Positions 15,699-56,544 of a stretch of DNA of 64,000 nt are shown one piece after another. The stretch spans positions 11,542 to 75,541 of the forward strand of contig JACPKR010000003.1 in NCBI GenBank assembly GCA_016186945.1, given 5' to 3'. The stretch's first letter is position 1. Each line of letters starts with the position of its first letter. The position numbers and the translations under genes are program-made. The notes below the pieces were generated by a model. The model was given only the letters and a program-made list of their open reading frames with translations. It did not search any database and had not been told where the DNA came from. Origin of the DNA: Deltaproteobacteria bacterium. Lineage in GTDB: Bacteria; Bdellovibrionota_B; Oligoflexia; Oligoflexales; Bog-1112.

Positions 15699-15821
15699 GT
15701 GAGGCGTAAGCCGCATGTTGTGAAAAGGGAGAGGTGGGTTTGGGGGGGCAAGTGAAGCGTCGCCTCCCCCGGATTTCTGGGAGGAACCAGCTGCGCAGTT
15801 TCCTCCAAACCACCTCCTTGC
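15699..15821 (-). mobile_element. Family A MITE, diverged, one TIR truncated
   Basis: Contains the core GGAGGAACCAGCTGCGCAGTTTCCTCCAAACCACCTCCTTGC and a TIR-like GTGAGGCGTAAGCCGC. Confidence 0.85.
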
Positions 15822-15840
15822 AACCAAGGAAGGATCACCG

Positions 15841-17847
15841 ATGACCGAGATTTATAGAATAGAGTCCCCTTTTCAACCTGCTGGCGACCAACCACAGGCG
15901 ATCGAAAACATAGTGAATTCGTTTTCTCGCGGAGACAAGCATCACGTCTTACTCGGCGTCACAGGGTCAGGAAAAACATTTTCCGTGGCCCATATCATCG
16001 CCCGACTGAATCGCTCCGCACTCGTGATCGCACCGAACAAAACTTTAGCCGCTCAACTTTACATCGAACTGAAGGGTTTGTTTCCCGATAATGCTGTAGG
16101 CTTTTTCATTAGCTACTACGATTATTTCCAGCCTGAAGCTTATGTCCCTTCCACAGACACTTACATTGCCAAAGACAGTGCCATCAACGACGACATCGAC
16201 AAAATGCGCCACAATGCGACGCAGCTTCTCTTTGAGGAGCCTGCCGCCATCATCGTCGCAAGTGTTAGCTGCATCTACGGCCTTGGTTCTCCAGACACTT
16301 ACGCTAGCAAGGTAGTCAATGTTGCCAAGGGTGATACCTTGAGCAGAAACGATTTGCTCCGCTCACTTCTTGCCATCAACTACCAGCGTAACGACCACAA
16401 CCTCCTACGTGGTCACCTACGCGTGAGAGGAGATATCGTCGATATCTTGCCGTCAAACCAGACAGACCGAGCTGTCCGTGTCTCCTTCCTGGAGACATCC
16501 GTAGAAAGCATCTCCCTCGTCGACCCGCTCACGGGCGAATGGCGAGAAGATCTTGAGGAAGTTTCGCTCTACCCGAACAGCCACTATGTAACGGACCGAA
16601 AAGATATGAAATCGGTCATAAACGAAATCCTCACCGATCTGGGAACCAAGCTGCGAGAGCTGAAGGATCAAAACAGACTGGTGGAAGCGCAACGGCTCGA
16701 ACAACGAACCATGCAAGACGTGGAAGCCATGGAGCAGCTTGGCTTCTGTCCTGGGATTGAAAATTACTCTCGCTATCTTTCCGGAAAAAAACCAGGGGAA
16801 GCTCCCCCTTGCCTTTTAGATTACTTCCCCCCCGACTTCCTGGTTATCATCGACGAAAGCCACATCACCGTCCCGCAATTGAAAGGTATGTACCGGGGCG
16901 ATCAGGCCAGAAAACAAACCCTCGTCCACTATGGTTTCCGCCTACCGTCCGCACTCGACAACCGACCCCTGAACTTCAATGAATTCTTGGAACGCTGTCA
17001 CCAGGTCCTTTTTGTTTCTGCCACACCCGGGCCTCTGGAATTAGCGATGGCCGATGGGCACATTTCTGAGCAAATCATCCGCCCCACCGGCCTTGTCGAT
17101 CCGAATATCATCGTGAAGCCTGCGAAATACCAAGTCGACGACCTACACACGGAGATCAAACGCGCGGTGGATTTGAAAGGACGCGTGCTCGTCACCACAC
17201 TTACAAAAAGAATGGCGGAAGATCTTACAGAGTACTACGCCGACCTCGGGGTTCGCGTGAAATACCTCCATGCTGATATCGACGCGTTGGAACGAGCATC
17301 ACTTTTACGATCCCTTCGCCTGGGTGAATTCGACGTCCTCATCGGCATCAACCTTCTTCGCGAAGGTCTCGACCTTCCCGAAGTCCTCCTAGTCGCCGTC
17401 ATGGACGCTGACAAGGAAGGCTTCCTGCGTTCGCACCGCTCCCTCATTCAAATTGTGGGACGAGCTGCTCGCAATAGCCAGTCACAAGTGATCTTTTATG
17501 CAGACACCGAGACTGAGTCGATGAGGGAAGCCCTCCACGAAACAGAACGACGCCGACAGAAACAACTCGCCTACAACGAAGCTCATAACATTACCCCAAA
17601 AACCGTGGTCAAGGACATTCCCAAAGACTTACGAGCCATGTACGGGCTTTCTGAATCCCTCGAGGAAACTCCGGAAGACATCCTCGATACATTGAGGCTA
17701 CAATTTAACTCAGCAAGCGACATAGAAACCGCTATCCGCAGAAAGACGAAAATTATGAAAGCCCATGCCGCACGAATGGAATTCGAACAGGCAGCGGAAC
17801 TTCGAAACGAAGTCAGGAAACTGAAAGCCTTGCTCCTTGTTTTTTGA
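15841..17847 (+). CDS. uvrB: Excinuclease ABC subunit B
   Basis: GVTGSGKT, YYDYFQPEAYVP, DESH, GINLLREGLDLPEV and C-terminal FEQAAELRNE. Confidence 0.98.
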   Translation: MTEIYRIESPFQPAGDQPQAIENIVNSFSRGDKHHVLLGVTGSGKTFSVAHIIARLNRSALVIAPNKTLAAQLYIELKGLFPDNAVGFFISYYDYFQPEAYVPSTDTYIAKDSAINDDIDKMRHNATQLLFEEPAAIIVASVSCIYGLGSPDTYASKVVNVAKGDTLSRNDLLRSLLAINYQRNDHNLLRGHLRVRGDIVDILPSNQTDRAVRVSFLETSVESISLVDPLTGEWREDLEEVSLYPNSHYVTDRKDMKSVINEILTDLGTKLRELKDQNRLVEAQRLEQRTMQDVEAMEQLGFCPGIENYSRYLSGKKPGEAPPCLLDYFPPDFLVIIDESHITVPQLKGMYRGDQARKQTLVHYGFRLPSALDNRPLNFNEFLERCHQVLFVSATPGPLELAMADGHISEQIIRPTGLVDPNIIVKPAKYQVDDLHTEIKRAVDLKGRVLVTTLTKRMAEDLTEYYADLGVRVKYLHADIDALERASLLRSLRLGEFDVLIGINLLREGLDLPEVLLVAVMDADKEGFLRSHRSLIQIVGRAARNSQSQVIFYADTETESMREALHETERRRQKQLAYNEAHNITPKTVVKDIPKDLRAMYGLSESLEETPEDILDTLRLQFNSASDIETAIRRKTKIMKAHAARMEFEQAAELRNEVRKLKALLLVF

Positions 17848-17849
17848 CA

Positions 17850-18044
17850 CTATAGTGTTTAAGGAAATCAATTTGGGGAAAAACTTTTTGGAAAAAGTTC
17901 TTTCCCCAAGCCCCTTTTCAAAAACTTCAATAGTTAAAGTTTTTTGGGGGGAGGTGTGGAGGGGAACTTTGTCATCCCGCGGCTTGACCGCGGGATCCAT
18001 TTTTCAAAAAAGGTCCTCTCCACAAATTCTTTTTCCCAATTACT
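17850..18044 (+). mobile_element. Family B MITE, full length, carrying an inserted REP
   Basis: Starts CTATAGTGTT; fills the whole uvrB-uvrC spacer; right end TTACTAT runs into the uvrC ATG. Confidence 0.9.
17970..17999 (+). repeat. Family C REP-like palindrome (GTCATCCCG type)
   Basis: TGTCATCCCGCGGCTTGACCGCGGGATCCA; absent from the other B copies at this position; same unit at 52915. Confidence 0.85.
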
Positions 18045-19877
18045 ATGAAAAAACTTCGTGAAAAACTAAAACGAGTCCCCTCCTCCCCAGGCAGCTACCT
18101 TATGAAAGATAAGGAGGGAGACATCATCTACGTTGGGAAAGCAAAGAATCTGAAGCACCGCCTGAGTTCCTATTTCGCCCGCACTTCGATCGAAGAGCCG
18201 AAGACACACGCCCTGGTGCAGGAGATCACGGACTTCGATATCATCCTCGTGAACAACGAAGTCGAAGCCCTGCTCCTCGAGCGGAGCCTTATCAAGGAGC
18301 ACAAACCCCGCTTCAACGTCATCCTGCGCGATGATAAGGAATACCCTTACCTGCGTGTCGACTTGCAGAACCAATGGCCCCGCATCAAGAAAGTACGTCG
18401 GCGTAAAAACGATGGGGCCACCTACCTCGGCCCTTTTAGCCACGTCAGTCAATTGAACGCGATCCTTGACCTCACCTTCCGTATTTTCCCCCTTATCCGC
18501 TGTTCCGAACACTACTTTGCAAACACAACGCGGCCTTGCAACTATTACCATATGAAACGCTGCCTCGGCCCATGCACGCTTCCTGTAAAGGAGGACTTGT
18601 ACAAGGGGATGGTGCGGGACGCGATCGCCTTCCTTCAGGGGAAGAACAAGGGGGTCATGAAAGCTCTCAAAGAAAAGCTGCTAGCTGCCTCCGAAAGTGA
18701 GGAATACGAATTGGCAGGGCGTTATCGCGACCAGCTCCATGCCCTGAGAACGATCACTCAGGAGCAAAACGTCGTCATTAAAAGTATCAAAGACTGCGAC
18801 GCCTTTGGGATCGCCCACGACCAGGACACCTTGTCCCTTCATGTGTTGAAAATTCGCGAGGGAAAAATTACCGGCAAGGATCGCTTCATCGTTCCCATGC
18901 CCCTTCCCCATCTGGCAGAAGCTGTAAGTGATTTCCTGCTTCAATACTACGAAGCCCGGTTTATCCCGCAAGAAATCATCCTGCCTTATGACTTCGCAGA
19001 TAGGGAAATTCTTGAACGCGCCCTGACCGAATGGTCCGAAAACAGGAAAGTTTCGCTGACTGTCCCCTCGAAGGGGCAGAAAATGCGCTTGGTGGAACTT
19101 TCCCACAAGAACGCTCTCTACCACCTTGAGGAGTCGCTTAATAAAAGAGCAAAGGAGAAAATTCGTCTGCAAGCCTTGCAAGACAAATTTCAACTGGACG
19201 AATTTCCCCTCCGCATCGACTGCATCGACATTTCGAATATACAGGGGACAGCCATCGTTGCCTCGCAGGTCTGTTTTCTGGGCGGTCGACCGGCGAAGGA
19301 CAAATACCGACTCTTCAATATCGAAGACTCACGAACAAGCCCCGACGACTACTGGGCCATAGGGGAAGTGACCAAGCGATATTTCGCTAGGCTCCTGCAT
19401 GAAAAGGAATGCCCCCAACTTCTCGTTATAGACGGAGGGAAAGGCCAGATGGCAGCCGCATTGGCTACGCTCAATCATTTTCCCGATCTCAAAATTCCCA
19501 TCGTAGGACTGGCAAAAAATCGAATACGCTACTCAGATGATGAAGAAGTAAGGACGGAGGAACGTGTTTTCTTCCCCGGGCAGCGAGACCCCTACATCCT
19601 GAAAGAAGGGTCTCCGGTCTACCAAATCCTTACACAAATCCGTGACGAAGCCCACCGCTTCGCCATCACCCACCACCGCAAACGACGAAAAGGTGTCCTC
19701 CAGAAATCCGTGCTGGACGAAATTCCCGGCATCGGCCCGTCGCTGAGAAAAAAATTGCTGGCTTACGCCGGAGATATAGAACAACTTAGAAATATGTCGT
19801 GGGAAGACCTTAGCAAAATCCCCGGCCTGCGAAAAAGCGTTGCGGAAGCCCTTTTCAAAAAATTATCTTCCTATTAG
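18045..19877 (+). CDS. uvrC: Excinuclease ABC subunit C
   Basis: GIY-YIG-like N-terminus (GSYLM..IIYVGKAKNL), CIDISN, IDGGKGQ, RDEAHRFA and C-terminal HhH (IPGIGP). Confidence 0.97.
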   Translation: MKKLREKLKRVPSSPGSYLMKDKEGDIIYVGKAKNLKHRLSSYFARTSIEEPKTHALVQEITDFDIILVNNEVEALLLERSLIKEHKPRFNVILRDDKEYPYLRVDLQNQWPRIKKVRRRKNDGATYLGPFSHVSQLNAILDLTFRIFPLIRCSEHYFANTTRPCNYYHMKRCLGPCTLPVKEDLYKGMVRDAIAFLQGKNKGVMKALKEKLLAASESEEYELAGRYRDQLHALRTITQEQNVVIKSIKDCDAFGIAHDQDTLSLHVLKIREGKITGKDRFIVPMPLPHLAEAVSDFLLQYYEARFIPQEIILPYDFADREILERALTEWSENRKVSLTVPSKGQKMRLVELSHKNALYHLEESLNKRAKEKIRLQALQDKFQLDEFPLRIDCIDISNIQGTAIVASQVCFLGGRPAKDKYRLFNIEDSRTSPDDYWAIGEVTKRYFARLLHEKECPQLLVIDGGKGQMAAALATLNHFPDLKIPIVGLAKNRIRYSDDEEVRTEERVFFPGQRDPYILKEGSPVYQILTQIRDEAHRFAITHHRKRRKGVLQKSVLDEIPGIGPSLRKKLLAYAGDIEQLRNMSWEDLSKIPGLRKSVAEALFKKLSSY

Positions 19878-20040
19878 TGTTCAAGATAATCAATTTGGGG
19901 ACAAACTTTTTGAAAAAAGTTATTTCCCCAACCCCCTTTTCAAAAACTTCAGTATTTAAAGTTTTTTGGGGGGAGGCGTGGAGGGGAACTTTTTTTCAAA
20001 AAAGGTCCTCTCCACAAATTCTTTTTCCCAAATACTATAG
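19871..20040 (+). mobile_element. Family B MITE, full-length reference copy
   Basis: CTAT(T)AGTGTT...AATACTATAG with three internal hairpins; lies between convergent stop codons. Confidence 0.9.
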
Positions 20041-20044
20041 TTCT

Positions 20045-20482
20045 TCAGAGATCCTTGATGTCCATAACGATGATGGCCTTTCTTTCCTTTATTTCGACCC
20101 CCGTTAAGGTCGTCACATACCCAGTCACGGAAACGTTCTTCCCGTCAAGTGCTTTGACGCTCTTCCTTTCCTTCCTGCTTAGGATGAGGTCGAACGTTCC
20201 GCTGTCTGTAGTCAGGGTGGTCCCCGACGTTTCCCCTCCGATCGCCATCACATGAGTTCGAAGGACACCGACGAGCGAAACTTGCTTTTCGTTTTGGTCG
20301 TCCTTATGCACGCAAAGGCCGATCCTCTGGTTGTAACGATAGTTTTGCTCGGGACACGAGCACTTGGAAGGGTGTCCCCACGGATTAATATCGCGTGTAC
20401 AAATCTTTGGATGCTGGTGGCGTAAAGAAAAGGCGTTTTGAGAAACAAAGAGGAAGAGCAGGGCGAATTTCACGATATTCAT
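20045..20482 (-). CDS. Small secreted hypothetical protein (Cys-rich N-domain plus beta-rich C-domain)
   Basis: Start reassigned to MNIVKFALLFLFVSQNAFS (signal peptide); four Cys in CTRDINPWGHPSKCSC...C. Confidence 0.7.
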   Translation of the reverse strand: MNIVKFALLFLFVSQNAFSLRHQHPKICTRDINPWGHPSKCSCPEQNYRYNQRIGLCVHKDDQNEKQVSLVGVLRTHVMAIGGETSGTTLTTDSGTFDLILSRKERKSVKALDGKNVSVTGYVTTLTGVEIKERKAIIVMDIKDL

Positions 20483-20567
20483 GGGAAGCCTTTCTCTTGG
20501 TTTAAACTTGCACCAACCTGCGTTTACTGTCAGTCTATCGCTTTTAGTAACCGCGGGAGTTTTTCTC

Positions 20568-23012
20568 ATGAACGACAAGGGTGCGGCTCTTGGCTATGAC
20601 TATAAAATCATTGAAAAAAAATGGCAACAATATTGGGCCGAGACAAAATCTTTCAAGGCGAACGATTTCGACAAACGTCCAAAGTTTTATGTACTCGACA
20701 TGTTTCCCTACCCCTCCGGCGATGGTCTACACGTAGGACATATCGAAGGATATACGGCCAGTGATATCGTTGCGCGTTACAAACGGATGCAGGGTTTCAA
20801 CGTCCTTCACCCGATGGGTTGGGATGCCTTCGGGCTTCCTGCCGAGCAGTATGCGATCAAGACGAACACCCATCCACGCCTGACCACGGAACGCAACATA
20901 GGGGTCTTTCGTTCGCAGATGAATCGCATGGGCTTCTCCTTCGATTGGGATCGCGAAGTCAACACAACAGACCCTCGCTATTATCGCTGGACACAATGGA
21001 TCTTCCTCAAGCTTTTCGAACGCGGCCTCGCCTACCAGTCTTTTGAACCGGTCAACTGGTGCCCGGGTCTGGGGACTGTCCTTGCGGATGAGGAAGTGAT
21101 CAACGGGCGCTCCGAAGTGGGAGACTTCCCCGTCGAGAAACGGACCATCAAACAGTGGGTGCTCAAGATCACCGCCTATGCGGAACGCCTTCTGGAAGAC
21201 CTTGACGAACTCGACTGGCCAGAGTCTACGAAAGAAATGCAGCGAAACTGGATCGGAAAAAGTGAGGGGTGCTACATAGACTTCCTCATTGCGGGACCTT
21301 CCAACAAGAAATTTCGTGTCTTCACCACACGTCACGATACCTTGTTTGGATGCACGTTCTGCGTCCTTGCACCCGAGCATCCTTTGATCCGAGAAATCGT
21401 AACCCATGAACACAAAAACAATGTCGATGCGTATATAGAAAAGACACGCAACAAGTCAGATTTGGAACGTATCTCCGACGGGAAAATCAAAACGGGTGTT
21501 TTCACAGGTGCCTATGCCGTCAATCCTGCGAACAACAAGAAGATCCCCATTTTCACCGCTGACTATGTGCTTTTCTCATACGGGACAGGTGCCGTGATGG
21601 GAGTTCCCGGCCACGACGAGCGTGACCATGCCTTCGCGTTGAAATATGGCTTGGAAATTGTTCGCGTTGTCGCAGGAGGAGACGGTGACATAAGCAACAC
21701 TGCCCACACAGGTGATGGTCACATTATCAACTCAGACTTCCTTGACGGTCTCTCGGTGCCCGATGCCTGCGAGAAAATGGGGGAATGGTTGGAGCATAAA
21801 AATCTAGGGAAACGCGGGACGACTTTCCGCCTCCGTGACTGGATTTTCTCCCGACAACGCTACTGGGGGGAACCTTTCCCGCTAGCCTTTGACAAGGATG
21901 GGAGCGTTATCCCCCTTTCAGAAGATGACTTGCCAGTTCTCCTTCCTGAAATGGACAACTACCAACCCACGGGTGGATTCGAACCCCCCTTAGCATCCGC
22001 ACACGAATGGACACAGGTGACGAAAGACGGCGTCCCCTTTACCCGTGAAACTAACATCATGCCTCAGTGGGCAGGCTCCTGCTGGTACTATCTACGCTTC
22101 CTAGATCCTTTGAACGATAAGGAACCATGGAACAAAGAGAAGGAAAAATATTGGATGCCCGTTGATCTTTACGTGGGAGGGGTCGAACACGCAAACCTTC
22201 ACCTTCTCTACGCACGCTTCTGGCACAAGGTTCTCTACGACATCGGGGTGGTTTCCACCAAGGAACCGTTTAAAAAACTCGTCCACCAAGGCATCATCCT
22301 GGGGGAGAACGGAGAAAAGATGTCGAAGAGCAGGGGCAACGTCGTGAACCCAACTCAAGTCGTAGACGAATGGGGTGCCGACTCCCTGCGACTTTACGAA
22401 ATGTTCCTGGGTCCCCTTGAACAGGTAAAACCCTGGCAAACCCAGGGCATTGCCGGCATAAGCCGTTTCCTGAACCGAGTCTGGCGCCTGATCATTAACG
22501 AAAATGGGCATATCGCAGCAACCGCATCCCGTAAAACGTCCTCCCAGGAAATGGAAGCGGCACTCGCCCATACGGTGAAAAAAGTAAGCGATGACACGGA
22601 ACATTACCGTTTCAACACTGCCATTTCCGCAATGATGGAATTCGTCAACCTGGCTTACAAAGAGGGTGGCTTAACCCATCAACAGGCAGAGACCTTGGTT
22701 CTTCTTTTGTCCCCTTTCGCTCCTCACTTAGCTGAAGAATGCTGGCAAAGGCTCGGCTTTCAGGAATCTCTCGCTTGCGAATCCTGGCCGCGAGTCGATG
22801 AATCCCTCCTTCTAAGGGAAAACATCGTCCTTCCTGTCATGATCAACGGAAAAACTCGGGGGACTATCACTGTGGCCAAAGATGCCGGGCAAGCAGAAGT
22901 CATCAGCGCTGCGCGAGAACAAGACTTCGTCAAACGTAATCTGGCAGGTAAAACTGTCAAAAAAGAAATCGTTGTCCCTGGACGCGTGATTAACTTCGTG
23001 ATTGGAGAATAA
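20568..23012 (+). CDS. leuS: Leucine--tRNA ligase
   Basis: MFPYPSGDGLHVGH (HIGH), KMSKS and DWIFSRQRYWGEP. Start reassigned to ATG 20568. Confidence 0.98.
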   Translation: MNDKGAALGYDYKIIEKKWQQYWAETKSFKANDFDKRPKFYVLDMFPYPSGDGLHVGHIEGYTASDIVARYKRMQGFNVLHPMGWDAFGLPAEQYAIKTNTHPRLTTERNIGVFRSQMNRMGFSFDWDREVNTTDPRYYRWTQWIFLKLFERGLAYQSFEPVNWCPGLGTVLADEEVINGRSEVGDFPVEKRTIKQWVLKITAYAERLLEDLDELDWPESTKEMQRNWIGKSEGCYIDFLIAGPSNKKFRVFTTRHDTLFGCTFCVLAPEHPLIREIVTHEHKNNVDAYIEKTRNKSDLERISDGKIKTGVFTGAYAVNPANNKKIPIFTADYVLFSYGTGAVMGVPGHDERDHAFALKYGLEIVRVVAGGDGDISNTAHTGDGHIINSDFLDGLSVPDACEKMGEWLEHKNLGKRGTTFRLRDWIFSRQRYWGEPFPLAFDKDGSVIPLSEDDLPVLLPEMDNYQPTGGFEPPLASAHEWTQVTKDGVPFTRETNIMPQWAGSCWYYLRFLDPLNDKEPWNKEKEKYWMPVDLYVGGVEHANLHLLYARFWHKVLYDIGVVSTKEPFKKLVHQGIILGENGEKMSKSRGNVVNPTQVVDEWGADSLRLYEMFLGPLEQVKPWQTQGIAGISRFLNRVWRLIINENGHIAATASRKTSSQEMEAALAHTVKKVSDDTEHYRFNTAISAMMEFVNLAYKEGGLTHQQAETLVLLLSPFAPHLAEECWQRLGFQESLACESWPRVDESLLLRENIVLPVMINGKTRGTITVAKDAGQAEVISAAREQDFVKRNLAGKTVKKEIVVPGRVINFVIGE

Positions 23013-23013
23013 A

Positions 23014-24147: not shown

Positions 24148-24217
24148 GTAATGGGTAAGCCCACTTGGGGCAAGGAGGTGGTTTGGAGGAAACTGAGCAG
24201 CTGGTTCCTCCAGAAAT
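24148..24217 (+). mobile_element. Family A MITE, left half only
   Basis: GTAATGGGTAAGCCCACTTGGGGCAAGGAGGTGGTTTGGAGGAAACTGAGCAGCTGGTTCCTCC. Confidence 0.85.
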
Positions 24218-25398: not shown

Positions 25399-25460
25399 GG
25401 AAGGCCCTTTTTAAGATAATCTAAAATCAGAGTTTAGACTATCTTAACAGATGATGGCAA

Positions 25461-25606
25461 GTAATGCGTAAGCCACTTGGGGCAAGGAGGTGGTTTGGAG
25501 GAAACTGCGCAGCTGGTTCCTCCAAGAAATCACTTGGGGGAGCGACGGTTCCCTCGCCCCCCCAAACCCCCCTCTCCCTATTTGCCCCAAGTGGCTTACG
25601 CATTAC
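25461..25606 (+). mobile_element. Family A MITE, full-length reference copy
   Basis: Perfect 25-bp TIR GTAATGCGTAAGCCACTTGGGGCAA; 8-bp TSD GATGGCAA (25453-25460 and 25607-25614). Confidence 0.95.
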
Positions 25607-25609
25607 GAT

Positions 25610-25708
25610 GGCAAGGAGGGGTTCAGGGGAAACTTCGCAGATGGTTCCCCCGAAGAAAGCCTTTCGCAGAAAGCACTGAATCTTTCTTCCCTGCCCCAAA
25701 TGGCTTAC
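25610..25708 (+). mobile_element. Old, diverged family A relative
   Basis: GGCAAGGAGGGGTTCAGGGGAAACTTCGCAGATGGTTCCCCCGAAGAA...TGCCCCAAATGGCTTAC parallels the A core and right TIR. Confidence 0.7.
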
Positions 25709-25773
25709 ACTTTTTATAGGGGATCGTCGTGTCACCACAGGACCGCTATTCTAATTTAAGAAGAGGTTTCGTC

Positions 25774-30425: not shown

Positions 30426-30446
30426 CAAAACACATTCCTTCAAATG

Positions 30447-30591
30447 GTCATGAGTAAGCCGCTTGGGGCAAGGAGGTGGTTTGGAGGAAACTGCGCAGCT
30501 GGTTCCTCCATGAATTCCTTGGGGAAGCGACGGTTCCCTCGCCCCCCCAAACCCCCCTCTCCCTTTTTTCCACAAGCAGCTTACAGGTTAC
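30447..30591 (+). mobile_element. Family A MITE, full length, diverged TIRs
   Basis: 8-bp TSD TTCAAATG (30439-30446 and 30592-30599). Confidence 0.92.
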
Positions 30592-30684
30592 TTCAAATGT
30601 CATTGGCGGACATTCCTCATAGTGACTATTCGTATGCTAGGAAGTGAATTCCGTTTCAACGATGGGAAGCAATGAGGTTGGCCC

Positions 30685-32886: not shown

Positions 32887-32895
32887 ATAATTTCC

Positions 32896-32942
32896 TTGGA
32901 GGAACCAGCTGCGCAGTTTCCTCCAAACCACCTCCTTGCCGT
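32896..32942 (-). repeat. Family A core-only derivative
   Basis: TTGGAGGAACCAGCTGCGCAGTTTCCTCCAAACCACCTCCTTGCCGT, 9 nt after the pilA stop. Confidence 0.88.
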
Positions 32943-34446: not shown

Positions 34447-35290
34447 CCCAATTACTCCTAAAAAAATTTTTTTTATTATACATTGAATTTCTGTCGTACT
34501 CTATAGTGTTCAAGATAATCAATGTAATGCGTAAGCCACTTGGGGCAAATAGGGAGAGGGGGGTTTGGGGGGGCGAGGGAACCGTCGCTCCCCCAAGGGA
34601 TTTCTTGGAGGAACCAGCTGCGCAGTTTCCTCCAAACCACCTCCTTGCCCCAAGTGGCTTACCACGGAAAATTTCAGAGGCATTCTGCAACCATTCTACG
34701 GCATCGGAAAGTGGTAGGCCAATGACATTTGTGAAGGATCCGCGAATGCTCTTTATGAAGCATGTTCCCTTTCCTTGCAAGGCGTAAGCACCTGCCTTAT
34801 CCATAGGCTCACCCGATTTCACATAGGAGCTGATTTCCTCATCCCCAAGGATTCTAAACTGTACATCGGTTTCAAACAGCGCGCTAACGACTTTCCTCTT
34901 GAAAGGCTTTGCTTTAACGAAGTGAAAACACATAGCAGTCAGCACCTTATGCCACTTGCCGGAAAGTGCTTGCAACATTTGCACGGCTTCGTCCTGATCC
35001 CGCGGTTTTTCAAGAACCGAGGAACCGAGCAGCACAATAGTATCCGCGCTTATGATAATGGTATTTTGCTTCAATCTCTTGCAAAAAGCCTTGTCGTCCA
35101 ACAAGCATGCCCCCTTTAGGCGCGCATGCTGTTCAGCATAACGGCGTGGATCATTCAAAAGCCCGCGGTTGTTAGTTTCATCATAGCTGCTTGAGATGGT
35201 TTCAAAGACGATTCCTGCCTGGATTAGAAGTTCCTTGCGCCGCGGAGATGCGCTGGCGAGAAAAATTTGGGATGTGGCCGCCTGATTCAC
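34364..35290 (-). CDS. maf: Maf-family nucleoside triphosphate pyrophosphatase with a ~99-aa repeat-derived C-terminal extension
   Basis: LASASPRR, ISADTIV, EKP, LSGKWH, DKAGAYALQG and NVIGLPL. The Maf domain ends near 34663 and the frame continues through MITE A. Confidence 0.92.
   Translation of the reverse strand: MNQAATSQIFLASASPRRKELLIQAGIVFETISSSYDETNNRGLLNDPRRYAEQHARLKGACLLDDKAFCKRLKQNTIIISADTIVLLGSSVLEKPRDQDEAVQMLQALSGKWHKVLTAMCFHFVKAKPFKRKVVSALFETDVQFRILGDEEISSYVKSGEPMDKAGAYALQGKGTCFIKSIRGSFTNVIGLPLSDAVEWLQNASEIFRGKPLGARRWFGGNCAAGSSKKSLGGATVPSPPQTPLSLFAPSGLRITLIILNTIEYDRNSMYNKKNFFRSNWDEKVAFTRNGERRFWTSVRRRCGQISM
34501..34523 (+). mobile_element. Family B left-end fragment
   Basis: CTATAGTGTTCAAGATAATCAAT, directly abutting a family A element. 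Confidence 0.8.
34524..34662 (-). mobile_element. Family A MITE lacking the terminal 7 nt of one TIR
   Basis: Intact GTAATGCGTAAGCC at 34524; the other end stops at ...GTGGCTTAC; no TSD. Confidence 0.9.
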
Positions 35291-36101: not shown

Positions 36102-36159
36102 GTAACCCGTTCTTGGAGGAACCAGCTGCGCAGTTTCCTCCAAACCACCTCCTTGCCGT
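36102..36159 (-). repeat. Family A internally deleted derivative
   Basis: GTAACCCGT (matches the TIR variant of the 44384 copy) fused to the core ending CCTTGCCGT. Confidence 0.82.
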
Positions 36160-44300: not shown

Positions 44301-44381
44301 ATCTGCTTTCAGAGAGCGAAAGATAAAGAGCTGTGGTTTCAAAAATTCAAAGTTGAGTTGAACATAGGAGCAGAGTTTTAG
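41346..44381 (+). CDS. tamA: Omp85-family (TamA/BamA-like) outer membrane protein with POTRA repeats
   Basis: POTRA-like repeats (ITGNQNI, VVRRELLF), EISYNNLGGTG, AGGSNEVRGF, and terminal NIGAEF. Confidence 0.85.
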   Translation: MKHIVSIVFKTINLGTNFLKKVISPNPFSKTSISKVFWVLMFANNAIGSDLVKSFPLDDYKNKSILEQRYKSVATLSDLSRLFKDIEKSSNISKLELHREGDQFHWVHTLAHPIRDIKIKTSIRFREFTQIIRNKYVGRMNSLHLQGVLVSEILENFERIGYPHAQANLSILDEDGFAEYVVEVWPGLSCIIADVQAPESPHAEVSLEIGPGDRCDINQIKAAVENYERKLIEEGFQQASLELEPLQYSRNRTVLNVHIRGVIGKKIDYLFIDESKIFFGSAIEEDMIQYFRENFSDPRQVRVTLIDYFKRKGYDFVSVKGPYLQKESDDFLTYIFLVNPGIAFKVSDMQIEGNSHLSTEDIKAAIDFQSFWESLPIIGKEKSYEDISKDIQHFYHSKGFWKATVQHSHTSFDRVSKSARMNILIDEGLPHMFRSLTITGNQNIDEGDIRKLFPAHEGDPLLQNQLIDFEYSVQSKYFEQGFIESKVATKVDTFIQKETVATDVTLLITEGPLVRIGTITIKGLVDTREPVVRRELLFSSGDTFNQELINQSRTALVNLGIFSSVAIERSEIKQHDSTHEIDIVIRVKEGDPGRVKFGPGFNLTRGLQYVGEISYNNLGGTGRRVNVRAAVSEERQQQSISDLTDKEGKTLLGRKVGLGFTEPYLLNLPVHGNISLYHQAIADDVWKLSNSIELSLSHHFSPDIFIGSVTPFYRFSRLRDEGTREQRDSLITTGSSDIGALGVRYRLDRRDSLLWPTKGFLFNIEASWARYNFFGQYRYFKWHLSSSQYFELMNDLVFAFGIGITSYERVLRRGANAETVDVLPANNRLLAGGSNEVRGFDHQLGPYVLTKRTDPSSQTVTYDREPPLGGSKRLILKSELRRQVVPNLLALSTFLDIGNSFFSLDEEDKFNKRFSESKTAQTERSMEDNFSYDFSELVTHPEYILLKNYQSYGLALNLLTPLGSFNAAVALPLREPSSDRCRGEGICFQRAKDKELWFQKFKVELNIGAEF
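41362..41460 (+). mobile_element. Family B left 99 nt, in frame inside tamA
   Basis: CTATAGTGTTCAAGACAATCAATTTGGGGACAAAC...GTTTTTTGGG; encodes IVFKTINLGTNFLKKVISPNPFSKTSISKVFW. Confidence 0.92.
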
Positions 44382-44383
44382 AC

Positions 44384-44527
44384 GTAATGCGTAAGCCACC
44401 TGGGGCAAATAGGGAGGGGGGGGTTTGGGGGGGCGAGGGAAGCGTCGCCTCCCCCGGATTTCTTGGAGGAACCAGCTGCGCAGTTTCCTCCAAACCACCT
44501 CCTTGCCCCAAATGCCTTACGGGTTAC
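44384..44527 (-). mobile_element. Family A MITE, full length
   Basis: 8-bp TSD TTTTAGAC (44376-44383 and 44528-44535) containing the tamA stop codon. Confidence 0.95.
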
Positions 44528-44535
44528 TTTTAGAC

Positions 44536-47984: not shown

Positions 47985-48012
47985 GTTCCTCCAAACCACC
48001 TCCTTGCCCCAA
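47985..48012 (-). repeat. Family A short fragment
   Basis: GTTCCTCCAAACCACCTCCTTGCCCCAA, located between the HEAT-HEPN gene stop and fabG. Confidence 0.75.
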
Positions 48013-49833: not shown

Positions 49834-49880
49834 GCAAGGAGGTGGTTTGGAGGAAACTGCGCAGCTGGTTCCTCCAAGAA
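49834..49880 (+). repeat. Family A core-only derivative
   Basis: GCAAGGAGGTGGTTTGGAGGAAACTGCGCAGCTGGTTCCTCCAAGAA, between convergent stop codons. Confidence 0.88.
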
Positions 49881-49894
49881 GTCCCTTTAGCGTT

Positions 49895-50530
49895 TCATCC
49901 CACTTCCTCTAGCGCATTCTCGTTAGTGAGAACCGTCATCTGAAGGGCTGTGCTCTCTTTCGCGAGTTCCCGCAGGTAAGGCTCCAGTCGGGTGACGAGG
50001 ACACGTGCTAGTTCCTGCCAATGAAGTGCGCTCATCTTTTCATGAAAAGCTTCATGGGCGGAGCGGATCAAGTGGGCGAGTCCGTTCACTGGCGCTAAAT
50101 ATGCATGGCTGTAGTCCAGAATGCCATTCATATGTTCGATCAGTTCCAAGAGGAGACTGATGTCACTAGAGATCTCCTCAAGTTCACCACGCGGCTTGAT
50201 GCTTCCGTCTTGCCAACAATGAACTGCCAGTCCTTTCAAGCGATTGCTAATCGCGCTGGCAAGGTCTCCGACAACGTCGAGCGTTTGTAACGATAGATCC
50301 TTAGGACTTTCGATCCTGATGTGTAGAGAAGAGTTTGCATTCAAGGGAATATTTCTGACCTTCGTTTTTTTGAGTCCATCAACCATTTCCCGATCATCAA
50401 GGACCACGCTTGTCAGAATCGTGTCATGCTTGGCGAACAGCTTTTCCACCCAGCTTAGGGCTTCCCCGAGTGTTTTTATGGGGACGGGAACTGGGATTTC
50501 TTTGTGTTTAAGCTTGATCTTTTTCAGCAT
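49895..50530 (-). CDS. Hypothetical protein (small N-terminal beta domain plus helical bundle)
   Basis: 211-aa ORF with SD GGGGGCG/AAGAG upstream; co-oriented with the GT-TPR gene. Confidence 0.7.
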   Translation of the reverse strand: MLKKIKLKHKEIPVPVPIKTLGEALSWVEKLFAKHDTILTSVVLDDREMVDGLKKTKVRNIPLNANSSLHIRIESPKDLSLQTLDVVGDLASAISNRLKGLAVHCWQDGSIKPRGELEEISSDISLLLELIEHMNGILDYSHAYLAPVNGLAHLIRSAHEAFHEKMSALHWQELARVLVTRLEPYLRELAKESTALQMTVLTNENALEEVG

Positions 50531-50554
50531 GGGCTTTCTCTTTTCAAGGGGGCG

Positions 50555-52396
50555 TTAAGCCAGCGAAGCCTCACTATTCCTCCCAAGCTCTGCCTGCGTC
50601 ATACTCAAGAGGCGGTGGGCCCGATGATCGTTTTCGTCGTCATCCAGGATCCTGCGCATACTTTGCGCTGCTTCATCGAATTTTCCTTGCCGGTACAGGA
50701 CGCCACCCAAGGAGTACAGGATCTCATGATTTTGAGGGTGCAAAGCAAGGTAGCGACGTAGGCAGGTTTCCACTCGTTCGTAATCGTCGGTTTCGTACCC
50801 GATCCTGACAAAACTATAGAGGGCTGACAAATTTTCAGCGTTAAGTTTCAAAGCTTCATGTACCCATTTCGCGGCTTCTTTCAGCTGACCCAACGCTTGA
50901 AAAGCAAGTCCAAGGCCAAGATTAGCCATCTCGTCGTTAGGAGAGAGGGTGAGCGCTTTCTGGAAGTGCAGCACGGCAATTTCGTATTTCTTAGTCAGCA
51001 ACGTGATTGTTCCCAAGCCTATGTATGGTTTGGCTGACAATTCATCAGCCTCCGTTGCTTTAATATAGGCATTTTTGCTTTCCTCGAAATTTCCAAGCTT
51101 TGCAAAACAGTCGCCCATAATTCTATAAAGACTCGAAAGGTGATAATGGGGAACCTCCTCTCCACCGAGCGCTGATTCAATGATTTCCACAGCATCGAGG
51201 TACTGCTTGGTGGCAAGTTTCTTCTCAGCCTCAGCGACTAGCTTGTCAATGTCACGCGCTTCGACGAGGACGTCTTTGGATGTGGTCTTGATTAGCAACG
51301 TCTTCAACGTTTTCAGCTCATTTTCCAAGGGGTAGAATCGGGTCACTTTCTCTTTATTCTTAGCCGCTATATCTTTTGCCAAAGCGGGGGAATGTGCCAG
51401 CTTCGTGATAGCCTTCGCAAGGCTGCTTGGTGATCCCATGCAAAAATCAATTCTATGTTTTCCCACAAACTCCTCAATTACAGGCAGACGACAGGCAAGG
51501 ATGGGGATTTGGTAAACCATCGTCATCAGAACAAGGGACGGGTTGACGTAAAACGAATCGTGTGCGAATTTCGGTGCGCAATAGAGAGCCGAGCTAGCTT
51601 CAAGAGCTGTCGTCAGAGACACTTTGTTAGGAGGCGCAAAGACAACGTCGTTGTCGATCCCGATTTTGACCGCAAATTTCTTGATTTCCCCAACATAAGC
51701 ACCTTTTCCATATACGAGGAGTTTGCCGCGACGATGGAGATAGGAATCACTATCTTTTGCAAACCGTATAGCATGAAGAAGGTCTACAAGGTTTTTTTCC
51801 CAGGCAATGTTTCCCACAGCAGCAATGACAAAATCACCGTCACATAGACCGAGGGACTCGCAAGCTTCTGCCTTTCGCCTACTGCTGATCGCTTTTCTGT
51901 CCGGAACAAGGGGAGGGACGTAAAGGATTTTTTCCTCCTTTTCCCCCTCCAGACGGAGAAGTTTCCTTGCCGCATCGGACTGTACGAGAAAATAGTCCGC
52001 AAGTCCTCCCACTTCATCGCGGATGACCCGGACGTTGGGAAGTTCCTCACCAGGAAAAGACACCAGATTGTCGATCCATACGATCAAACGAAATAGATGC
52101 TTCGATTTCGCTTTGACGGCCTGATACGAGCAAAGGTTGGTTCGGTCTTTGACGATAACAACGTCAAAACCTTTCAGTATATTCTCAAGGCCAGGAAGAA
52201 AGGTTGGGCTTGACTCATAGTATGGCAGGGTAAGCAGAGCAAGCTTTGAATCCCTGAGGCAAGGGACCACCGATTCTCCAATTTTTGAAGACGTGATGAC
52301 ACTGAGTTCGCACGTCTCCGCGAGCGGTATGAACTGCTCAATATCGAAGACATTGGGATGGCACCCGAAAACAAGGGCTATTTTTGTCTTGTCCAC
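50555..52396 (-). CDS. GT-B (GT4-like) glycosyltransferase domain fused to TPR repeats
   Basis: AVGNIAWEKN, LLVYGKG and IPILAC segments of the GT4 C-lobe; several TPRs (PYIGLG, ANLGLG, ILYSLG); GTG start. Confidence 0.75.
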   Translation of the reverse strand: MDKTKIALVFGCHPNVFDIEQFIPLAETCELSVITSSKIGESVVPCLRDSKLALLTLPYYESSPTFLPGLENILKGFDVVIVKDRTNLCSYQAVKAKSKHLFRLIVWIDNLVSFPGEELPNVRVIRDEVGGLADYFLVQSDAARKLLRLEGEKEEKILYVPPLVPDRKAISSRRKAEACESLGLCDGDFVIAAVGNIAWEKNLVDLLHAIRFAKDSDSYLHRRGKLLVYGKGAYVGEIKKFAVKIGIDNDVVFAPPNKVSLTTALEASSALYCAPKFAHDSFYVNPSLVLMTMVYQIPILACRLPVIEEFVGKHRIDFCMGSPSSLAKAITKLAHSPALAKDIAAKNKEKVTRFYPLENELKTLKTLLIKTTSKDVLVEARDIDKLVAEAEKKLATKQYLDAVEIIESALGGEEVPHYHLSSLYRIMGDCFAKLGNFEESKNAYIKATEADELSAKPYIGLGTITLLTKKYEIAVLHFQKALTLSPNDEMANLGLGLAFQALGQLKEAAKWVHEALKLNAENLSALYSFVRIGYETDDYERVETCLRRYLALHPQNHEILYSLGGVLYRQGKFDEAAQSMRRILDDDENDHRAHRLLSMTQAELGRNSEASLA

Positions 52397-52770
52397 TATA
52401 TCGTCCTAGTAAAGGAGTGAGCCTTTGCTTTTGCAGACTGATATTTCTTGTTTCGTGATTTTTCCTTTTGCAATTTTGCAAGTTGCGAAAAGAGGTCCAT
52501 CCGGACACCTTCAAGGGAGCTGCCTAGCCTTAGATTCACGGCTGCAATTTTTTCTATGAGTTCTTTGAACGGATCATCTGCATCAAGTGCTTTCAATTGA
52601 TCGTAGTAACGATAGTTGTGATAAGCAGCGTTGCGCCATTTTAAAAGTTCGAGAGCCTGAGCCAATTTTTTCTTGTGAATAAGTTGCAAGACTCTCTCAC
52701 CACGATCGAGGTAGACCTGGAGGGCTGCGATGGCACGCGCCAAACTTTTTTCCGACATAGGTCGTTTCAA
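52396..52770 (-). CDS. Small helical protein, FliT-like
   Basis: 124 aa, all-helical, basic C-terminal segment ending ..KYQS..; SD GGAGG before TTG 52770. Confidence 0.5.
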   Translation of the reverse strand: MKRPMSEKSLARAIAALQVYLDRGERVLQLIHKKKLAQALELLKWRNAAYHNYRYYDQLKALDADDPFKELIEKIAAVNLRLGSSLEGVRMDLFSQLAKLQKEKSRNKKYQSAKAKAHSFTRTI

Positions 52771-52851
52771 GGCCGCCTCCTTCGTTTATTATAAACCAAG
52801 ACGGGCATCTTGCGGTAATCTGCGCTATTTCGGTTGGTACAATTTGCCTAG

Positions 52852-53066
52852 CTATAGTATTTGAGAAAAAGAATTTGTGGAGAGGACCTTTTTTGAAAAA
52901 AAGTTCCCCTCCGCTGTCATCCCGCGGCTTGACCGCGGGATCCAACGGCAGCCTTCCTCGAATAAGTTGGGTCCCGCGGTCAAGCCGCGGGATGACAGAC
53001 CCGTAAAAATTCTTCCCGAAAACTCGTAAAAGTTTTTCCCAAAATTGATTGTCTTGAATACTATAG
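52852..53066 (-). mobile_element. Family B MITE whose middle is replaced by a REP doublet
   Basis: Perfect 10-bp TIR CTATAGTATT at both ends; the empty site reconstructs to CTAG. Confidence 0.9.
52915..52997. repeat. Family C inverted REP doublet (REPIN-like)
   Basis: TGTCATCCCGCGGCTTGACCGCGGGATCCA, 23-nt spacer, TGGGTCCCGCGGTCAAGCCGCGGGATGACA. Confidence 0.9.
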
Positions 53067-54002
53067 TCATAGCAGATCAATTTTAGGAGCTGGGGAGATC
53101 GGCCCGCTTATCTTTATCAGCAGTTTGCCCTCGGTTTCCTTCCCCGAGATGGCGTTTAGAGCGAAACCGAATTGTTTCCTCAGTTCCTGGAATAGTTGCA
53201 AATTGACGGAGATATCGAGGACGGATTGCTCAATCTTTGTTTTCTGCAAGACTTTCCCTTCAAACGCAATATCGAGGTCTTTTGTGCGAAAGCGAGAATT
53301 TTTGTCTATGGTCGCAGTTCCATTTTGCAAGCTCGCCTTCAGAATCGCCGTTTCAAACTTTTGCGAAGGGATTTGCATGGATTCGTCAAATTGGACTACG
53401 GTATCTTTCAAATCAAAGGATACTGTTCCCGTCGAAAGGGAGAAATCGGAAACATTCAAACTCAAATCCACCTCTGCCTTAAGTTTTCCGTCTATCCCCA
53501 TTTTCTCAAGGATTGGTTTTAAAAAAAGACTGGTACCCGGACTAGCGGCAAACATTTTCACTCCAAACTCTGCTAAATCACCGAATAGAAACTTGTCAGC
53601 CTCGATCTCGACCGAGGACGGGAGTATCATACGAGATCCTTTGAGAAGGTCGAACAGACTCAGCCCAAGGGACAGATCCAGAGTTCCCTGCGACCTATCC
53701 TCGATCTCGACATCCACATCAATATGCGCCCAGAGAAGGGGAAGCACACTGACCTGCACGCTAGCATAGGGAATCTGAATCTCGTTACCTTCGGATGTGC
53801 CCAATTTTGTATTTTCGATCTCGATCCCTAAAGGGAAGCTCGGGCCTAAGTCTCCAATGCTTACTGCCATGCCCGTAGCATTGGTCGTTTCCACAGCGAT
53901 TGACTCCTTCAGCACATCGTAGGGGAAGGAGAAGTAGAGAAAAGTGATGAATCCAACAAGACCGACAATTATATATATAGCCCAACGCGTAAAATTTTTC
54001 AT
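53067..54002 (-). CDS. gspN: Type II secretion system protein GspN
   Basis: N-terminal TM FLYFSFPYD, beta-rich body; last gene of the gsp cluster. Confidence 0.75.
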   Translation of the reverse strand: MKNFTRWAIYIIVGLVGFITFLYFSFPYDVLKESIAVETTNATGMAVSIGDLGPSFPLGIEIENTKLGTSEGNEIQIPYASVQVSVLPLLWAHIDVDVEIEDRSQGTLDLSLGLSLFDLLKGSRMILPSSVEIEADKFLFGDLAEFGVKMFAASPGTSLFLKPILEKMGIDGKLKAEVDLSLNVSDFSLSTGTVSFDLKDTVVQFDESMQIPSQKFETAILKASLQNGTATIDKNSRFRTKDLDIAFEGKVLQKTKIEQSVLDISVNLQLFQELRKQFGFALNAISGKETEGKLLIKISGPISPAPKIDLL

Positions 54003-54013
54003 AGGGACCTCGA

Positions 54014-54661
54014 CTATTTTTTGCCTTGATAACCTCGGAACATCAATGTCGTATCGAAAAACAATTTATTGCCATATTGGCCTGTGATTTTAATTTCCTT
54101 CAGACGGATATAATGTTCAGACTTTTCGACATCGGACACCAGGCTCAGGATGCGTGGGATGGAAATCTGGGGAAAGCGCATTTCTATATCGACTTCGTTA
54201 AATGTCTCAGAAAGGGGATTGGCAGAGTCAATGGGATTCACTTTTTCGCTCAGGTCCTTCATCTCGATATTCTTTTCCTTACTCAACTTCTCGAAGAAAG
54301 GCTTGAATGCCAATCCCCTCGTTTTTGCGGAAATGGTACTCACAAGTTTGGAGAAACGTTGTTCTTCATTGGTATCGAAAGATTTGACTTTTTTCAGTTC
54401 CTGCAGGGCTGAGACGCTTTCGCTCAACTCAAGCTCAAGCTCTCGCACTTGCCCGAAGTATAAAACAAGGGCAATTCCTATAACAAAAACGATAGCTCCC
54501 ACACCAACTGCGACTACCCCGTTCCTTTGTGTGGGTGACAGTTTGTAGAAACTGTCCATCACAAAATCCAGACGTTCGTTGTTGGGACCCAGAAGTCGGA
54601 CTCTAATTTCCTTCAGATATTTCTCAAGGAACGGATCGAGCAATTTTTTCAAAGCTCCCAT
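54014..54661 (-). CDS. gspM: T2SS GspM/PilO-like inner membrane protein
   Basis: KLSPTQR..TM..coiled coil..ferredoxin-like C-domain; position after gspL. Confidence 0.65.
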   Translation of the reverse strand: MGALKKLLDPFLEKYLKEIRVRLLGPNNERLDFVMDSFYKLSPTQRNGVVAVGVGAIVFVIGIALVLYFGQVRELELELSESVSALQELKKVKSFDTNEEQRFSKLVSTISAKTRGLAFKPFFEKLSKEKNIEMKDLSEKVNPIDSANPLSETFNEVDIEMRFPQISIPRILSLVSDVEKSEHYIRLKEIKITGQYGNKLFFDTTLMFRGYQGKK

Positions 54662-54676
54662 TACATCACCTTCAAG

Positions 54677-56317
54677 TTACCTGGGGATATAGTTCGTTTC
54701 AATCACCGCTATTTTAATGTCTGTACCTGGCTTAGTATCTGATGACTTTTCAACGATAGCATCAAAGACTTTCACCTCACCCATTGCGTTTTTTAATTTT
54801 GCCAAGGTATCGAACGAGTCTGCTTCGATGCGCAGCCTAAGCGAGCCTGACCCGTCGGGGCGAGCAGAGTAGCGATACTCCACAACTTCCACCGCAACTT
54901 CTTTGGGAAGGGCCTGGCTCATTTCCTGCAAAACTACCATAGCACCACTGTCGCTGTTCGATTTAATGAAGCCCTGGAAGGCTTCTTTTTTGCTTTCAAT
55001 CCGTCCGTTCAGCATGGCTACAGCATCGCGATGAATTTTTGAAAACGAAGTTCCTGCTGATTTTGCAAGGCGTTTGAATTCAGGGAAGCTTGCAATTTCC
55101 TTTTTGTAGACTTCCTGAATGCTCACGATTTCCCGATTATAGAGGTAGAACTTAATACCATAACCCAATCCCATGAGGAGCAATGCTATGGCAATGACTT
55201 TTGCAACAGCCCCCGCTGTGTTTAACACGGACGCATAGTCCTGGATGTAGGCGAAAGGTCCTTTCCTCAGATTGATTTGGGAGTGCCGTTTGACGGACGT
55301 CACTGCCCTTATCCCAATGGAGATTCCTTGAGACATGATAGGGACATGGGAAGCAAGTTCTGGACTAATTTGCAATTTTGAGTTTACCAGCCCGTTACTA
55401 ACGGTTTCTATCCCGATCTCTTGCGTCAGGAAGCTGTCCATATTTTTGATCAACGAGGTGCCGCCGGAAATGAAAATTTTGTCGATCGGTGCTTTTTCCC
55501 AAGTTTTGAAAGCATAGAGACTACGGCCCAATTCACGGGCGATGGGCTTTGACGCAAGGGCGATTCGCTCTGCTACGTTACGATCTTCCTTGCTGAGACC
55601 TTCTCCCGAGTCGTCTCTTACAATGACGTTGACCCTGTGTTTGATCCGTTGGGCCTCGTTAAAGGACACTTCCAGGTCTCTTGCAAGAAAATCAGTGACA
55701 TAACGACCCCCAAGATTGATAGACCGGAACATGCGTAGCACACCGTCCTGTACAAGGCAGACCGAGGTTTTCTCATGACCCAGATCGACGATACCGTAGC
55801 ACTTCCCCTTCTCCATGGGGAGATAGGGGCTGAGGTTATAAAACGACAGACTATCTACATCCACAAGTTTGGGGTCGATGCCGATGATTTTCAAATTTTC
55901 GAGAAAGGTTCCCAGGAAATTGCTTTTCGTCATCACGACCAGGGTAAAGGTCTTCCCCCCAATCGTGCCGAGAATCTGATGGTCGATAATCATCTCTTCA
56001 AGGTGGAAAGGAACCACATCTTCGACTTCAGCAAGAACTGACGACTCGATCTTATTGGGATCCGAAAAATTGAACGTCATGATGCGACTTGATATATACT
56101 GGCCGGGCATGGCTGTAATGATACGATCGGCTTGAAGGGCGTTTTCTGAGAAAATCTGCCCCAGGCAAGCGGGCAGTATGGTGGAGGGGTCGATTTCCTC
56201 GATTTGTGGAATGACCTTCTCGTAGAAATTCGTGATTTCATAGGACTTGAACTTGTTTAAAATTTCAACTGCCTTTACCGAGTAACTGCCAATGTCTAAT
56301 GCTATGATTTTCTGCAT
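54677..56317 (-). CDS. gspL: T2SS GspL-like protein (PilM actin-like domain fused to TM and PilN-like periplasmic domain)
   Basis: IALDIGSYSVKAV, VDLGHEKT, ISGGTS, INLRKG followed by a TM helix. Confidence 0.8.
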   Translation of the reverse strand: MQKIIALDIGSYSVKAVEILNKFKSYEITNFYEKVIPQIEEIDPSTILPACLGQIFSENALQADRIITAMPGQYISSRIMTFNFSDPNKIESSVLAEVEDVVPFHLEEMIIDHQILGTIGGKTFTLVVMTKSNFLGTFLENLKIIGIDPKLVDVDSLSFYNLSPYLPMEKGKCYGIVDLGHEKTSVCLVQDGVLRMFRSINLGGRYVTDFLARDLEVSFNEAQRIKHRVNVIVRDDSGEGLSKEDRNVAERIALASKPIARELGRSLYAFKTWEKAPIDKIFISGGTSLIKNMDSFLTQEIGIETVSNGLVNSKLQISPELASHVPIMSQGISIGIRAVTSVKRHSQINLRKGPFAYIQDYASVLNTAGAVAKVIAIALLLMGLGYGIKFYLYNREIVSIQEVYKKEIASFPEFKRLAKSAGTSFSKIHRDAVAMLNGRIESKKEAFQGFIKSNSDSGAMVVLQEMSQALPKEVAVEVVEYRYSARPDGSGSLRLRIEADSFDTLAKLKNAMGEVKVFDAIVEKSSDTKPGTDIKIAVIETNYIPR

Positions 56318-56401
56318 ATGGTGCCCTTTTGAGGAACGTCAGCTCTCTTTATATTCTGACTTGCCCACGATTCCCTGTCAAATTGACGAGGTCGCAAATC
56401 A

Positions 56402-56544
56402 GTAATGCGTAAGCCACTTGGGGCAAGGAGGTGGTTTGGAGGAAACTGCGCAGCTGGTTCCTCCAAACAATCCCGGGGGAGGCGACGCTTCACTCGCCCC
56501 CCCACCCCCCCCTCCCTATTTGCCCCAAGTGGCTTACGCATTAC
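56402..56544 (+). mobile_element. Family A MITE, full length
   Basis: Perfect TIR; 9-bp TSD CGCAAATCA (56393-56401 and 56545-56553) containing the gspK stop codon. Confidence 0.95.

Follow-up and report, generated by a model that had tools for sequence, protein, structure and literature searches.

Correia elements of Neisseria duplicate TA, and pneumococcal BOX elements, which are modular (boxA-boxB-boxC) and variable in their module content, are not known to carry an 8-bp duplication. MITEAba12 of Acinetobacter, a MITE (miniature inverted-repeat transposable element) of about 110-150 bp, is moved in trans and has ISAba12 as its parent; about 40% of its copies keep their target duplications, which are mildly AT-rich (PMC6382973). 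REP/REPIN elements are moved by REP-associated tyrosine transposases, or RAYT (PMC3116915, PMC2817692). The subject of this study is another short repeat, designated family A, which is present in a 64,000-nucleotide stretch of the genome of a Deltaproteobacteria bacterium. This stretch (the window) corresponds to C54:11542-75541 of assembly G000 (2.66 Mb, 76 contigs, 48% G+C, rated 91% complete), a draft genome assembled from a metagenome. Judging from the names of homologous proteins, the organism belongs to the uncultured Oligoflexales-like bacteria. Our analysis points to family A being, very probably, a non-autonomous DNA transposon (a MITE) that has multiplied within one species, because it has no room for a transposase gene, has inverted ends, is flanked by 8-9-bp duplications and occurs in high copy number.

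Structure, transposition and species range of family A

A BLASTN search of the whole assembly, which the original prediction made from the window had called for, detected 480 loci related to family A. They occupy 43.4 kb, i.e. 1.6% of the genome (one locus per 5.5 kb), and about 110 of them are full length. Most both-ended copies measure 143-147 bp, which is too short for a transposase gene, and there are rarer variants of 77 to 247 bp. The elements are bounded by perfect terminal inverted repeats of 25 nt (GTAATGCGTAAGCCACTTGGGGCAA), and this inverted end is found in the assembly 256 times when up to four mismatches are allowed and 126 times in its exact form. Their layout consists of an outer end, the hairpin-A module, a linker, the hairpin-B module and a second outer end. 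With one half inverted, the two halves of the element are about 70% alike, and as a result the consensus, folded as single-stranded DNA, forms a long terminal stem bearing two side hairpins (-54.5 kcal/mol, z = -12.5).

From the window, a division into two subfamilies according to the second hairpin's loop had been proposed, and both were recovered genome-wide: B1 (146 bp, hairpin-B loop GGTTCCC, about 28 copies) and B2 (144 bp, loop GCTTCAC, about 35 copies). Identity inside each subfamily is 94-95%; 32 of the 71 copies lie only 1-3 nt from their own consensus, and there are no identical pairs. The rarer forms comprise a 169-bp variant with an additional hairpin, 77-bp miniature elements and chimeras with another repeat. 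About 35% of the bases of the repeats fall inside crude gene calls (vs 89% genome-wide), and no orientation bias of family A relative to genes was found in G000.

Perfect duplications flank 30 of the 79 both-ended copies, with a length of 8 bp in 23 cases and of 9 bp in 7, and in six further copies the flanks agree at 7 of 8 positions. When the comparison was shifted by 20 nt as a control, no duplications were obtained. The duplicated words are mutually unrelated and mildly AT-rich (58% AT vs 52% in the genome). All four full copies of the window, at 25461, 30447, 44384 and 56402, had been credited with verifiable duplications, and in each case these proved to be exact. The first (copy 1; 25461-25606, plus strand), a B1 element of 146 bp differing by 1 nt from the subfamily consensus, lies between two copies of the 8-bp word GATGGCAA (25453-25460 and 25607-25614). 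The second (30447-30591, plus strand) has diverged ends (GTCATGAGTAAGCCGC...), is located directly upstream of the gene for arginyl-tRNA synthetase and is flanked by TTCAAATG (30439-30446 and 30592-30599). The third (44384-44527, minus strand; 144 bp, loop GCTTCCC) is situated between two convergent genes and is flanked by TTTTAGAC (44376-44383 and 44528-44535), and the fourth (56402-56544, plus strand), a B2-like element of 143 bp, by the 9-bp word CGCAAATCA (56393-56401 and 56545-56553).

Some copies of family A are nested within other repeats. Copy 1 itself is inserted in an older hairpin module, and excision of this copy together with one GATGGCAA restores a continuous GGCAAGGAGG...hairpin. 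The search for empty sites, also suggested by the original prediction, covered six sites in public sequencing runs of one series; the organism is present in runs SRR12113383-SRR12113431. In run SRR12113383, the Logan contig L055 matches 1279 bp of the left flank of copy 1 with 100% identity and contains a single GATGGCAA and no MITE; to the right, 26 nt are retained with 2 mismatches, after which the sequences diverge. This contig is an empty allele of copy 1 in a rearranged strain, and constitutes one, somewhat untidy, case. The five other sites gave identical contigs in several runs, all ending within the MITE, so that these copies are occupied in each run in which the site is present. An assembly artefact is thereby ruled out, as the identity of independent contigs extends up to the MITE and into it.

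The breakpoint in L055 falls inside an old hairpin module and reflects a strain-level rearrangement in a co-occurring strain. The 278 nt of this contig (L055 1-278) that lie past the copy-1 site, compared with the window from 25607 onward, are absent from the G000 assembly.

In the mechanism that we envisage, a transposase supplied in trans would have bound the 25-nt inverted ends, and the element would have been inserted at staggered cuts 8 bp, sometimes 9 bp, apart. Repair of these cuts would then have given rise to the flanking duplications, which are themselves directly observed. The burst of family A is fairly recent and ongoing activity is probably absent, judging from the 32 copies that lie within 1-3 nt of their consensus, the lack of identical copies, and the occupied-only state of five of the six sites checked.

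Several observations weigh against transposition through the inverted ends as a full account of these repeats. The expectation that duplications generalise genome-wide was borne out by the 30 perfect cases, with none in the control, but not by about 33 full copies that have no duplication. The latter are about as close to their consensus as the copies with duplications (0.965 vs 0.972), a similarity that is unexplained. Exchange of flanks between copies was rejected as the cause, since the corresponding test yielded no more than one nested case and two contig joins; deletions between direct copies might account for the missing duplications. No duplications were found at the short-form elements. 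Moreover, about 195 hairpin-A loci are devoid of inverted ends, hairpin B and duplications, and inverted-end transposition cannot explain them. Finally, no insertion sequence bearing family A ends turned up in the window, elsewhere in the assembly or in any of the collections searched. Multi-copy insertion sequences are often lost from metagenome-assembled genomes, and for this reason the absence of the partner from the assembly is weak evidence.

Family A is, very probably, restricted to a single species, within which it multiplied. A 20-nt end sequence occurs 226 times in G000, whereas none of the 94 further genomes of the order, three congeners (G001-G003) among them, contains it more than once, which equals the control level. 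An inner variant of the end has the same distribution, and its singletons fall within coding sequence. The ends gave no match beyond chance in GTDB species representatives, JGI metagenome contigs and IMG/VR, nor in BLAST searches against plasmids and phages; two single matches from the public scans (L029 and L030) were dismissed as chance matches within unrelated DNA. The Rfam search proposed earlier gave no match for the window, and we found no paper containing family A sequences. As had been suspected, the element is apparently undescribed.

Other copies in the window and rearranged forms

The 25-nt end matches seven sites in the window at up to three mismatches (none in shuffled sequences), and the hairpin GGAGGAAACTGCGCAGCTGGTTCCTCC is present ten times (0 expected from shuffles). 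BLAST located 11 loci, which together with a degenerate element at 25607-25715 make up the 12 copies or fragments counted at the outset. That element (plus strand), the older target of the copy 1 insertion, carries the variant loop CTTCGCAGATG in its hairpin, and its right end has decayed to CTGCCCCAAATGGCTTACAC. Another degenerate, older copy (15698-15821, minus strand) retains hairpins A and B and shows 85% identity over query positions 22-147; its left inverted end is gone and its right one has decayed. A near-full B1 copy without duplication (34524-34662, minus strand; BLAST and end match) lacks the outer 7 nt of its hairpin-A-side inverted end (at 34662), while the end at 34524 is intact. 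Only the left half is left at 24148-24217 (plus strand; BLAST and motif match), with a 1-nt insertion in the inverted end and one mismatch in hairpin A, and BLAST also identified a 27-nt fragment across the junction of inverted end and module (47986-48012, minus strand). The remaining loci, all found by BLAST and motif match, are solo hairpin-A modules: 32892-32940 (minus strand), which has neither inverted end nor hairpin B, 36110-36157 (minus strand), which is 100% identical to the MITE core, and 49834-49887 (plus strand).

Rearranged forms are found elsewhere in the assembly. At C43:23237-23264 the right end of a family A element has its outer 14 nt inverted (…TTGCCCCCCAAC GTAATGCGTAAGCC). 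Two copies share an insertion point within the inverted end of another copy, after GTAAGCCAG (C32:71908-71931 and C14:18060-18068), which hints at self-targeting or a hot spot. A second type of hairpin, GAGGGAAACCATCTGCGAAGTTTTCCCTC, has the loop CTTCGCAGATG and differs from hairpin A by one compensatory pair; it is found at window positions 25607-25715 and, fused to family A ends, in chimeras (e.g. C17:39599 and in C6), and is probably part of a separate family, B, noted when the window was first read. Repeats of yet another family, which contain the palindrome GTCATCCCGCGG...CCGCGGGATGAC, were observed in C25 near 25282 (reverse-strand coordinate) and in C23 near 13022; they stand in tandem and adjoin family A copies.

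Family A also breaks the assembly, with 15 contig ends lying within 400 bp of an inverted end. Half-MITEs at contig ends with matching 8-bp flanks, GAAGGGCC and GGGTGGAA, suggest that the end of C59 and the start of C16, and likewise the end of C46 and the start of C30, are neighbours joined across a copy of family A.

The hairpin-A module

One building block of the MITE, the hairpin-A module, also constitutes a repeat by itself and is more numerous than the MITE, a point that the original prediction had missed. It may possess a mobilising enzyme, be maintained by selection or gene conversion, or be a mark of older, decayed elements. The 44-nt core of this module, GCAAGGAGG(T)GGTTTGG(A)GGAAACTGCGCAGCTGGTTCC(T)CCAA, gave 395 matches to a 27-mer and 413 to a 19-mer in G000, compared with about 110 full-length MITEs. 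At the solo loci the core is 93-100% conserved and similarity of the flanks fades within 10-15 nt; neither a duplication nor a target motif was found there. A weak resemblance of these loci to inverted-end positions 14-25 is discernible, and there is a mild excess of them between convergent genes (29% vs 17% of intergenic bases).

The core is found in three other genera as well, with 101-136 occurrences in each of G010, G013 and G015 and 17 in G012, all of which are without family A ends. In the remaining 126 genomes of the class, the three congeners among them, it occurs no more often than by chance. In G010 the module is found singly or in tandem. A non-coding palindromic element of ~360-530 bp in G013 and G015, from a sister genus, has the module as both of its inverted termini, hairpin outermost, and its interior is composed of two inverted units of ~150 nt (...GGATCCTCCCAACTCTCAAAATCGCAG...CTGCGATTTGTGACCCGTTGGGGCCC...). 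This element was located in G015 at L037 208-720, L038 184-545, L039 206-720 and L040 196-705, and in G013 at L041 192-710, and it has no match in Rfam. When 16 modules chosen by hand were aligned, changes on both sides were seen at 5 of the 9 stem pairs, around a fixed loop; pairing is preserved in 98.6% of the cells, as opposed to 88% in shuffles and 28-73% in slid controls.

Long simple repeats were observed to abut hairpin modules, namely (GAA)n and (AAAAG)n in G013 (L041 and L005), and in G000 over 30 consecutive C residues adjoin a module (C20:62940-62975).

According to one alternative, which is compatible with our preferred explanation, the primary repeat is the 44-nt module, a REP-like element that either spreads by an end-independent mechanism of its own or is preserved by a host function, and family A is a composite (“type II”) MITE that arose once ends recognised by a transposase had come to lie around resident modules. 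We consider this possible, although on balance rather doubtful. It would account for the surplus of cores (395-413) over MITEs and for the 195 or so loci without ends or hairpin B. The strict conservation of solo cores between rapidly fading flanks, their abundance in four genomes lacking family A ends, their position at the termini of the palindromic element and the covarying stem also speak for it. On the other hand, no enzyme is linked to the module. In G000 the Y1 gene is part of an ordinary tnpA-tnpB pair of the IS605 type that has no module next to it, and across relatives the distribution of Y1 genes does not match that of the module; a RAYT was rejected as its mover on these grounds. 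Furthermore, the solo loci are without duplication or target motif, and their weak similarity to end positions 14-25 means that some of them may be decayed MITEs.

A more far-reaching version would make the module the real unit of selection or mobility, REP-like and recognised by a putative hairpin-specific enzyme or host factor, which has spread patchily among Oligoflexia-like genera in different carriers. We regard this as unlikely. If it were true, the carriers would be solo and tandem modules (in G010 and at the end-less loci of G000), palindrome termini (in G013 and G015) and the composite MITE of the G000 species.

The presumed partner transposase and comparison with known systems

Every inverted end in G000 is followed by one of two MITE interiors (GGAGGTGG / ATAGGGAG). 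Cases in which other sequence followed the end turned out to be rearranged or truncated MITEs, e.g. the inverted 14-mer at C43:23251, and long pairs of ends (2.2-3.6 kb; in C52, C32, C66 and C6) were rejected as insertion sequences, as they enclose ordinary genes between two MITEs. Comparison of the assembly with itself by BLAST revealed no insertion-sequence-like repeat longer than 300 bp. The claim that mobilisation must have occurred in trans is supported by these results, and the proposed search for an insertion sequence with matching 25-bp ends was fruitless. Family A is an orphan element, since no insertion sequence in the assembly or in the searched collections carries matching ends.

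Several transposase genes were nevertheless noted in G000, and no rve-type gene was found in the assembly. A Y1 tnpA gene (140 aa; C40:48920-49339) is divergent to an open reading frame (ORF) of 464 aa, probably tnpB, in an IS605-type layout (C40:47534-49339). This pair is single-copy, and the nearest hairpin-A module lies about 600 bp beyond the tnpB-like ORF. An IS5-type gene is truncated by a contig end (C31:1-573) and may mark a collapsed multi-copy insertion sequence, and an IS256-type remnant of 133 aa is located at C52:32596-32994. All three were excluded as partners, as none of them adjoins family A ends.

Insertion sequences of the IS1 family have ends starting with GGT(A/G)ATG and generate duplications of 8-9 bp, mostly of 9 bp. 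The hallmarks of the IS66 family are a 20-30-bp repeat starting with GTAAGCG and 8-bp duplications (PMC11946415), and its ISBst12 group has GTAAC... ends and also an 8-bp duplication (PMC12898284). IS66 fits family A better than IS1 because of the GTAA tips, the 25-nt repeat and the predominance of 8-bp duplications (23 of 30). Our best guess, a tentative one held at less than even confidence, is that the partner belongs to IS66, maybe to the single-ORF ISBst12 group.

Certain features do not accord with this assignment. The tip of the MITE is GTAATGC rather than GTAAGCG, with GTAAGCC only at positions 8-14, and the 9-bp duplications (7 of 30, i.e. 23%) are unusual for IS66. Genes for IS66 DDE transposases (PF03050) are present in all three congeners, but absent from the G000 assembly. 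The IS66 elements of relatives start with GTAAGCG, GTAAAAC, GTAACTC or GTATATC, one of them being flanked by an 8-bp duplication, and their likeness to the MITE ends is no better than that of shuffled sequence. These loci were rejected as the source, since they do not match the MITE ends.

The original prediction had pointed to a resemblance to IS1, and derivation of the MITE from an IS1-family element, moved by an IS1-family transposase, would agree with the 8-9-bp duplications, with the GTAATG motif near the tip and with the occurrence in the sister genus of an IS1-family element (in G010, the sole IS1 element of the family) ending in GGTAATGTAGAG. This resemblance did not withstand closer comparison. 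The MITE starts with GTAATG, and position -1 lies within the duplication and can be any base, so that the leading G of GGT(A/G)ATG is missing; only these 6 nt are common to the MITE and the G010 end. In addition, the IS1 transposase (PF03400) has no match in G000 or in congeners G001-G003, and the main duplication length is 8 bp, not the 9 bp mostly made by IS1. An IS1 origin therefore appears improbable, and the probability beyond these two families falls to another or unknown DDE family. Contig ends of G010 (L026-L028), together with L025, show that a multi-copy IS1-family element ending in ...CTCTACATTACC breaks that assembly.

That the 145-bp unit is not mobile at all, and is a terminator- or REP-like repeat with a regulatory or structural role in the host, propagated through recombination or gene conversion, can be practically discounted: its strong fold (-54.5 kcal/mol, z = -12.5), a weak terminator-like site on one strand and the mild enrichment of solo loci between convergent genes (29% vs 17%) would suit such a role, but it is at odds with the exact 8-9-bp duplications of unrelated words, the empty allele, the nesting of some copies in other repeats, the lack of orientation bias relative to genes and the absence of the unit from the three congeners.

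The interpretation of family A as a MITE adds a dense family of such elements to a barely studied, uncultured group. Many genes have one of its repeats next to them, and gene calling in this lineage can be confused by these repeats. Its species-specificity makes it usable as a population marker. The most interesting lead is the shared hairpin module: one hairpin core reused in three repeat architectures across genera offers a tractable case for the assembly of MITEs from resident modules.

Family A is an ordinary kind of element, and the current understanding of MITEs is not overturned by these results. With REP/REPIN elements it shares a short hairpin in hundreds of intergenic copies, arranged as singlets and inverted doublets, the stem of which covaries around a fixed core. 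It differs from them in its inverted ends and 8-9-bp duplications, which are not made by Y1/RAYT transposition, and no RAYT is linked to it. BOX and Correia elements are likewise abundant, intergenic and of similar size, and family A resembles BOX in having long, short and chimeric variants; no sequence similarity between these elements and family A is known. MITEAba12 differs in having a known parent, ISAba12, in its distribution (about 90 copies over 31 genomes) and in lacking a modular hairpin core, but the proportion of copies that retain their duplications is alike in the two families, being about 40% for MITEAba12 and 38-46% for family A.

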